Origin: Escherichia coli
GTDB lineage: Bacteria; Pseudomonadota; Gammaproteobacteria; Enterobacterales; Enterobacteriaceae
NCBI RefSeq assembly: GCF_003334405.1
Contig: NZ_QOWM01000001.1
DNA length: 64,000 nucleotides
Direction: 5' to 3' (one strand)
Part shown: positions 60,830-61,024 of the stretch, piece by piece
Layout of the letters: the number at the start of each line of letters is the position of its first letter
Position numbering within the stretch: the first letter of the stretch is position 1
Position numbers and translations under genes: made by a program
Notes under the pieces: model-generated
The model's input: the letters and a program-made list of their open reading frames with translations, nothing else
Told to the model about the DNA's origin: nothing
Database searches by the model: none

Positions 60830-60874
60830 TTTTTATCCCTCTTGCATACACCGTTGTGGGTACAGTCAGGCAAT

Positions 60875-60890
60875 AGCAAGGGGAGTGCCA
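60875..60890 (-). promoter_or_regulatory. sigma54 (-24/-12) promoter of atoDAEB
   Basis: minus-strand TGGCAC-N5-TTGCT, about 45 bp upstream of the atoD ATG. Confidence 0.6.
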
Positions 60891-60972
60891 GAATGAGATT
60901 ATTGGATTTAGTTATTTAACTAATTGAATATGAAGGGATAAATTGGATGGGGATTTATAAGGAGAATGAGCG

Positions 60973-61013
60973 GCTATGCAGAAAATTGCGCACTGTGCAA
61001 ATTTCTGCATAGC
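60973..61013. promoter_or_regulatory. AtoC enhancer-type binding site (two inverted 20-bp half-sites)
   Basis: GCTATGCAGAAAATTGCGCA / CTGTGCAAATTTCTGCATAGC near-perfect palindrome about 100 bp upstream of the sigma54 promoter. Confidence 0.6.
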
Positions 61014-61024
61014 AAGTTTTGGTG

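Follow-up and report, generated by a model that had tools for sequence, protein, structure and literature searches.

The promoter/enhancer region of the atoDAEB operon of Escherichia coli K-12 was reportedly characterised experimentally by Matta et al. in 2007 (J Bacteriol 189:6324). PMC3118216 (Table 5, citing Matta 2007) gives two 20-mers, located at −184 to −165 and −163 to −144 from the atoD start, as AtoC sites with experimental verification; according to that paper, AtoC binds both of them in vitro as well as in vivo, and induction by acetoacetate depends on them. Bonocora et al. (PMC4591121) reported an intergenic sigma-54 ChIP-seq peak upstream of atoD, OS21, with the motif CTGGCACTCCCCTTGCT, a start-to-gene distance of 35 nt, a FAT value of 5 and the EcoCyc status 'C' (experimentally confirmed). 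Shimada et al. (PMC8743547), who counted AtoC among the 12 enhancer-binding proteins of E. coli, mapped a gSELEX peak to the atoC/atoD spacer with reconstituted RpoN holoenzyme. In a 2024 study, AtoSC enhanced an atoDAEB promoter-GFP reporter when acetoacetate was supplied during growth. Butyrate supports no growth of wild-type E. coli, except where atoC is constitutive. For prpBCDE, a system of related design, expression requires prpR, ntrA and ihf.

We analysed a 64,000-nt stretch of E. coli DNA (hereafter the window), in which the 195-bp spacer separating the atoC stop codon (61027–61025) from the atoD ATG (60829–60827) corresponds exactly to positions 60830–61024. The spacer is 100% identical to that of E. 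coli K-12 MG1655, whose annotation has atoC ending and atoD beginning in the matching region. The gene order on the minus strand is atoS-atoC-atoD-atoA-atoE-atoB, and the same strand carries every control element of the spacer; the initial annotation was silent on strand, and all the features it named lie on the minus strand. Complete copies of atoC, atoD, atoA, atoE and atoB are present in the window. The atoD-atoA-atoE-atoB operon (56983–60829, minus strand) was delimited from its ORFs, their NCBIfam matches and the MG1655 annotation. Its ORFs lie at 60167–60829 (220 aa, atoD), 59517–60167, 58198–59520 and 56983–58167, and NCBIfam identified the alpha and beta subunits of acetate CoA-transferase, the TIGR00366 (AtoE) family and an acetyl-CoA acetyltransferase; in the operon annotation, AtoE is a short-chain fatty-acid transporter family protein. 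Across the ato region, a single synonymous SNP in atoC separates the sequence from the MG1655 record, and a few further SNPs lie elsewhere. We concluded, with a probability of about 95%, that the spacer controls atoDAEB as its native regulatory region in a K-12-like E. coli and is a classical enhancer-dependent sigma-54 promoter. No evidence contradicting this explanation was encountered.

The initial annotation had proposed a −24/−12 element of the form TGGCAC-N5-TTGCT about 45 bp upstream of atoD. Such an element is present: TGGCACTCCCCTTGCT occupies 60890–60875 on the minus strand, matches TGGCAC-N5-TTGCW exactly, as no other place in the 64-kb window does, and ends 45 nt from the atoD ATG. 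It lies within the 17-nt promoter motif (60875–60891, minus strand), whose GG and GC are at 60889–60888 and 60877–60876, respectively. By chance, 0.12 matches to TGGCAC-N5-TTGCW would be expected per window, and 12 of 100 shuffled windows gave at least one. The motif by itself is thus only modestly improbable, and its weight comes from its position, orientation, neighbours and conservation. Using the rule of PMC4591121, in which the start lies 19 bp downstream of the motif centre, we placed the predicted transcription start at window position 60864 (minus strand), 35 nt before the atoD ATG. The 17-nt motif and the 35-nt distance are exactly those of OS21, and the sigma-54 reading agrees with the ChIP-seq peak, its EcoCyc status (PMC4591121) and the gSELEX peak (PMC8743547). 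The predicted atoD 5' UTR (60830–60863, minus strand) contains the Shine-Dalgarno sequence AAGAGGG at 60843–60837, upstream of the ATG that begins at 60829. Our literature search returned no report of direct rpoN-dependence of atoD transcription.

The 41-bp near-perfect inverted repeat that had been placed about 100 bp further upstream was found upstream of the −24 GG at 60973–61013 (minus strand), its centre lying 104.5 bp from the GG. Separated by 11 nt from the atoC stop codon, it reads GCTATGCAGAAATTTGCACA-G-TGCGCAATTTTCTGCATAGC on the minus strand (61013–60973). Its two 20-nt arms (61013–60994 and 60992–60973) are complementary at 18 of 20 positions and flank one central base. The repeat is unique: none of equal quality occurs elsewhere in the window, 200 Markov-1 random sequences produced none, and analytically 0.0006 would be expected per window. 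Relative to the predicted start, it spans about −149 to −109, with its centre ~129 bp upstream. In the work of Matta et al., the sites are said to lie at about −146 to −107, which would imply a mapped start 2–3 nt from the predicted 60864.

The repeat had also been suggested as the AtoC site, and its arms proved to be the verified 20-mers at the same distances from atoD (PMC3118216, Table 5). Counted from the ATG at 60829, the published offsets give 61013–60994 and 60992–60973, the very arms found here. Read as sites, GCTATGCAGAAATTTGCACA (61013–60994) and GCTATGCAGAAAATTGCGCA (60973–60992, plus-strand reading) show no mismatches to the published sequences. When the whole window was searched with the 20-mer pattern, allowing up to three mismatches, only the two arm sites matched. 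We also considered each 20-mer as an NtrC-like dyad of its own (TGCA-N6-TGCA). This arrangement was rejected, as the inner symmetry (6–12 of 14 positions) was lower than the arm-to-arm symmetry (16–19 of 20). For the palindrome, the published description as two inverted 20-bp sites is retained.

The cognate enhancer-binding protein of the promoter is encoded immediately upstream, as the initial annotation had noted. The atoC gene (61025–62410, minus strand) is a 461-aa ORF for a sigma-54 enhancer-binding response regulator. Its product matched the NCBIfam AtoC equivalog at 1004 bits (cutoff 714) and is identical to the K-12 protein. Pfam domains Response_reg, Sigma54_activat (E = 2.4e-75), AAA_lid_14 and HTH_8 were detected, with the GAFTGA loop of the AAA+ domain at residue 220. 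AtoC therefore has the full architecture of a bacterial enhancer-binding protein (bEBP), consisting of a receiver, a sigma-54-interaction AAA+ domain, an AAA lid and a Fis-type HTH.

Upstream of atoC, the sensor histidine kinase gene annotated as atoS in MG1655 occupies 62407–64000 (minus strand). The 531 of its 608 codons visible in the window contain no internal stop, only the terminal one; the 77 N-terminal codons are outside it, and the window alone cannot confirm that the sensor is intact. The suggestion that the short-chain fatty-acid module is fully inducible here holds with qualifications. The cis-elements, atoC and atoDAEB are all intact, but the suggestion applies to acetoacetate only, which is the natural inducer, not butyrate, and the N-terminus of atoS falls outside the window.

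Next to the control region of this strain, we considered its counterparts in other genomes. Of 5426 complete E. coli genomes, 3925 carry the region. The other 1501 (28%) had no match to the atoC-atoD region, and the ato module is therefore accessory within E. coli. Among E. coli alleles down to 95% identity, all substitutions but one fell outside the palindrome, the IHF-like block described below and the −24/−12 element. In E. coli CUVM53 (NZ_CP116976.1, L007, ~2679–2680), a deletion runs from inside the −24/−12 spacer into atoD. It takes out the −12 element and the atoD N-terminus, and atoD in that strain is a RefSeq pseudogene.

A scan for AtoC in one genome per species recovered a divergent Escherichia (90% AtoC identity) and five Citrobacter species (83–86%); in this species-representative set, close AtoC orthologues outside Escherichia were confined to Citrobacter. 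Seven atoC-atoD spacers from Escherichia and Citrobacter were aligned. Invariant columns made up 76% of the palindrome, 65% of the −24/−12 element, 46% of the IHF-like block and 61–71% of the 5' UTR and the Shine-Dalgarno-to-ATG segment, versus 4–9% of the two spacers. The pattern TGGCA[CT]-N5-TTGC[AT] was kept in all orthologous loci, and the −24 GG lay 104.5–107.5 bp from the palindrome centre in 7 of 7, about ten helical turns. Within the palindrome, 12 of the 20 pairs were invariant across the seven sequences, and two arm positions had changed symmetrically on both arms across species, which preserves the dyad symmetry. At positions 60996/60990 (columns 46/52 of alignment A2), one arm has A and the other C, a non-complementary pair in 7 of 7 sequences; this conserved position makes the half-sites asymmetric (TGCACA versus TGCGCA).

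More distant counterparts were found in two metagenome-assembled genome (MAG) loci, from a Nitrospiraceae bacterium (L014:3880–4120) and a deltaproteobacterium (L015:3871–4090), each with an AtoC of only 56% identity. Both carry TGCGCA-type dyads directly after the atoC stop, followed by TGGCAT-N5-TTGCT. Downstream of this motif are atoD-atoA-atoE in L014 and an atoE homologue in L015.

An AT-rich block between enhancer and promoter contains an IHF-like sequence, ATTCAATTAGTTA (60917–60929, minus strand; about −65 to −53), which has one mismatch to WATCAANNNNTTR. Calling an IHF site on the consensus match alone was rejected as not significant, since one-mismatch matches occurred at chance frequency in the window (61 versus 55 expected). 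The block is invariant within E. coli and, across genera, 46% invariant versus 4–9% in the flanking spacers. An IHF ChIP paper makes no mention of ato. The IHF step is the weakest part of the model, and the conservation of the block, its only support, suggests that IHF may bind there.

The atoD leader, from the −12 element to the ATG (60874–60827), was conserved between Escherichia and Citrobacter about as much as the AtoC palindrome (61–71% invariant columns, versus 4–9% in the spacers upstream). RNA structure in the 5' UTR was considered as a candidate and rejected: the hairpin of −3.8 kcal/mol was no better than shuffled sequences (z = 0.77). An Rfam scan of the whole window gave nothing in the ato region.

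Taken together with the literature, these elements best support the standard enhancer-dependent model, as follows. Sigma-54 RNA polymerase waits as a closed complex on CTGGCACTCCCCTTGCT, as the literature documents on precisely this sequence. Acetoacetate is sensed via AtoS, leading to the phosphorylation of AtoC, as reported in the literature. AtoC occupies both 20-bp sites of the inverted pair, whose centre lies ~129 bp upstream of the start, as published for this very sequence. By analogy with the NtrC family, phosphorylated AtoC may oligomerise as an AAA+ assembly on the paired sites. The AT-rich spacer of ~105 bp would then loop or bend, probably with IHF at ATTCAATTAGTTA, and bring AtoC to the polymerase. 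ATP hydrolysis via the GAFTGA loop is expected, from the behaviour of the family, to open the promoter near 60864. The atoD-atoA-atoE-atoB transcript is predicted to begin ~35 nt before the atoD ATG.

Could atoDAEB be expressed mainly by another route, from transcripts that run on past atoSC or that start at a sigma-70 promoter not recognised here, with the −24/−12 element being an inert sigma-54 site? We regard this as extremely improbable. A scan of the minus strand found no terminator-like site between the atoC stop and atoD, and some read-through into atoDAEB from atoSC transcripts is therefore possible. Such read-through may feed basal expression, but the conserved, phased −24/−12 element and enhancer would be unexplained by it, and acetoacetate- and AtoC-dependent control via these cis-elements has been reported (PMC3118216). 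For a sigma-70 promoter, a consensus scan of 60700–61200 returned 0 sites versus 1.0 expected in shuffles. An inert element would be in line with the many transcriptionally silent sigma-54 sites of E. coli (most sites were inactive under the uninduced conditions used in PMC4591121) and with the occurrence of the motif alone in 12% of shuffled windows. Against it, the spacing between motif and enhancer is fixed from E. coli to Citrobacter, the motif recurs in the distant MAG loci, and the promoter is experimentally confirmed according to EcoCyc (PMC4591121).

We also regard as highly unlikely a second alternative, in which the palindrome works mainly in the RNA, as a hairpin that terminates or stabilises the atoSC transcript at its 3' end, or has both roles. 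Its start 11 nt past the atoC stop codon, the 20-bp stem it would form and the two positions that changed symmetrically in both arms across species would all suit a hairpin. A terminator, however, is not suggested by CGCTCATTCTCC, which follows the palindrome without a U-tract, nor by the terminator scan, which made no call. The A/C arm position, non-complementary in every aligned sequence, is an asymmetry unexpected under pure hairpin selection. The 12 pairs that never vary point to sequence-specific conservation, the −24 element lies at a conserved distance, and AtoC binding of both 20-mers has been reported experimentally (PMC3118216). The pattern of change in the dyad fits sequence-specific protein recognition better than hairpin selection, and a hairpin is conceivable as a secondary role. 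An additional layer of control, in which the conserved leader would hold an unrecognised site (for a repressor, as an sRNA target or as a translational element) and the palindrome would also act as an atoSC 3' hairpin, seems to us unlikely. We keep the enhancer-dependent sigma-54 promoter as the explanation of the spacer.

Several other features of the window were recorded. A sequence with one mismatch to the sigma-54 consensus, TGGCACTGAATATGCT (24943–24958, plus strand), lies in the last part of yfaY, and yfaX, the regulator of the rhamnonate operon, follows ~300 bp downstream. It is probably the RpoN site known at yfaX/yfaY, because an RpoN gSELEX peak is tabulated there by Shimada et al. 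(PMC8743547). A perfect hairpin at 3495–3533, TTCGACCAGTCAGCA-TATT-TGCTGACTGGTCGAA, with a 16-bp stem and a 4-nt loop, sits between the convergent ORFs 1749–3476 (plus strand, yfbK) and 3547–4758 (minus strand, elaD) and is probably a bidirectional terminator. The only Rfam match in the window was naRNA4/CssrE at 40194–40264 (plus strand, 76.4 bits), placed in the nrdA-nrdB intergenic region by offset to the MG1655 annotation.

At the junction 54192–54193, in a yfaS remnant upstream of yfaQ (54479–56128), ~3193 bp are missing relative to MG1655. There yfaS is an alpha-2-macroglobulin family pseudogene, and the missing stretch is internal to it. Window segments 49097–54193 and 54192–57402 match MG1655 segments that are 3.2 kb apart. 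A match spanning the junction was found in 0 of 5426 complete E. coli genomes, and the two halves matched separately in every one. Possible explanations of the junction are a deletion specific to the strain, one made by engineering, and an artefact of assembly.

Compared with the E. coli K-12 atoDAEB promoter/enhancer, the locus shows no difference: the whole spacer, both AtoC sites, the sigma-54 motif and all distances are identical, and the strain is set apart by the synonymous atoC SNP and the few SNPs elsewhere. The AtoC sites and the sigma-54 promoter are thus already known, letter for letter, and nothing in them is new. The analysis serves as a positive control, in which a real regulatory module was recognised from raw sequence. 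The cross-genus footprint (the ~105-bp phasing, the IHF-like block and the A/C position) adds modest support to the published model and provides a clean template for locating ato-type enhancers in other genomes. The spacers of Citrobacter spp. and the divergent Escherichia (L008–L013) have the same palindrome, with 16–19 of 20 positions complementary, and share TGGCA[CT]-N5-TTGC[AT] and the 104.5–107.5 bp spacing with E. coli; drift is seen in their spacers and at a few positions of the arms, where two of the changes occur symmetrically on both arms.

Among better-known regulators, AtoC resembles those of NtrC-glnAp2 and PrpR-prpBCDE in being a bEBP with a GAFTGA-containing AAA+ domain and a Fis-type HTH, and belongs to the response-regulator type. 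As at NtrC-family promoters, paired dyads lie ~100–150 bp upstream of the −24/−12 element, with an AT-rich region in between that may act as an IHF-like bend. Unlike in those systems, the signal at ato is acetoacetate, received via AtoS, the recognition sequence is GCTATGCAGAAATTTGCACA rather than an NtrC site, and the enhancer abuts the stop codon of its own activator gene at a distance of 11 nt.
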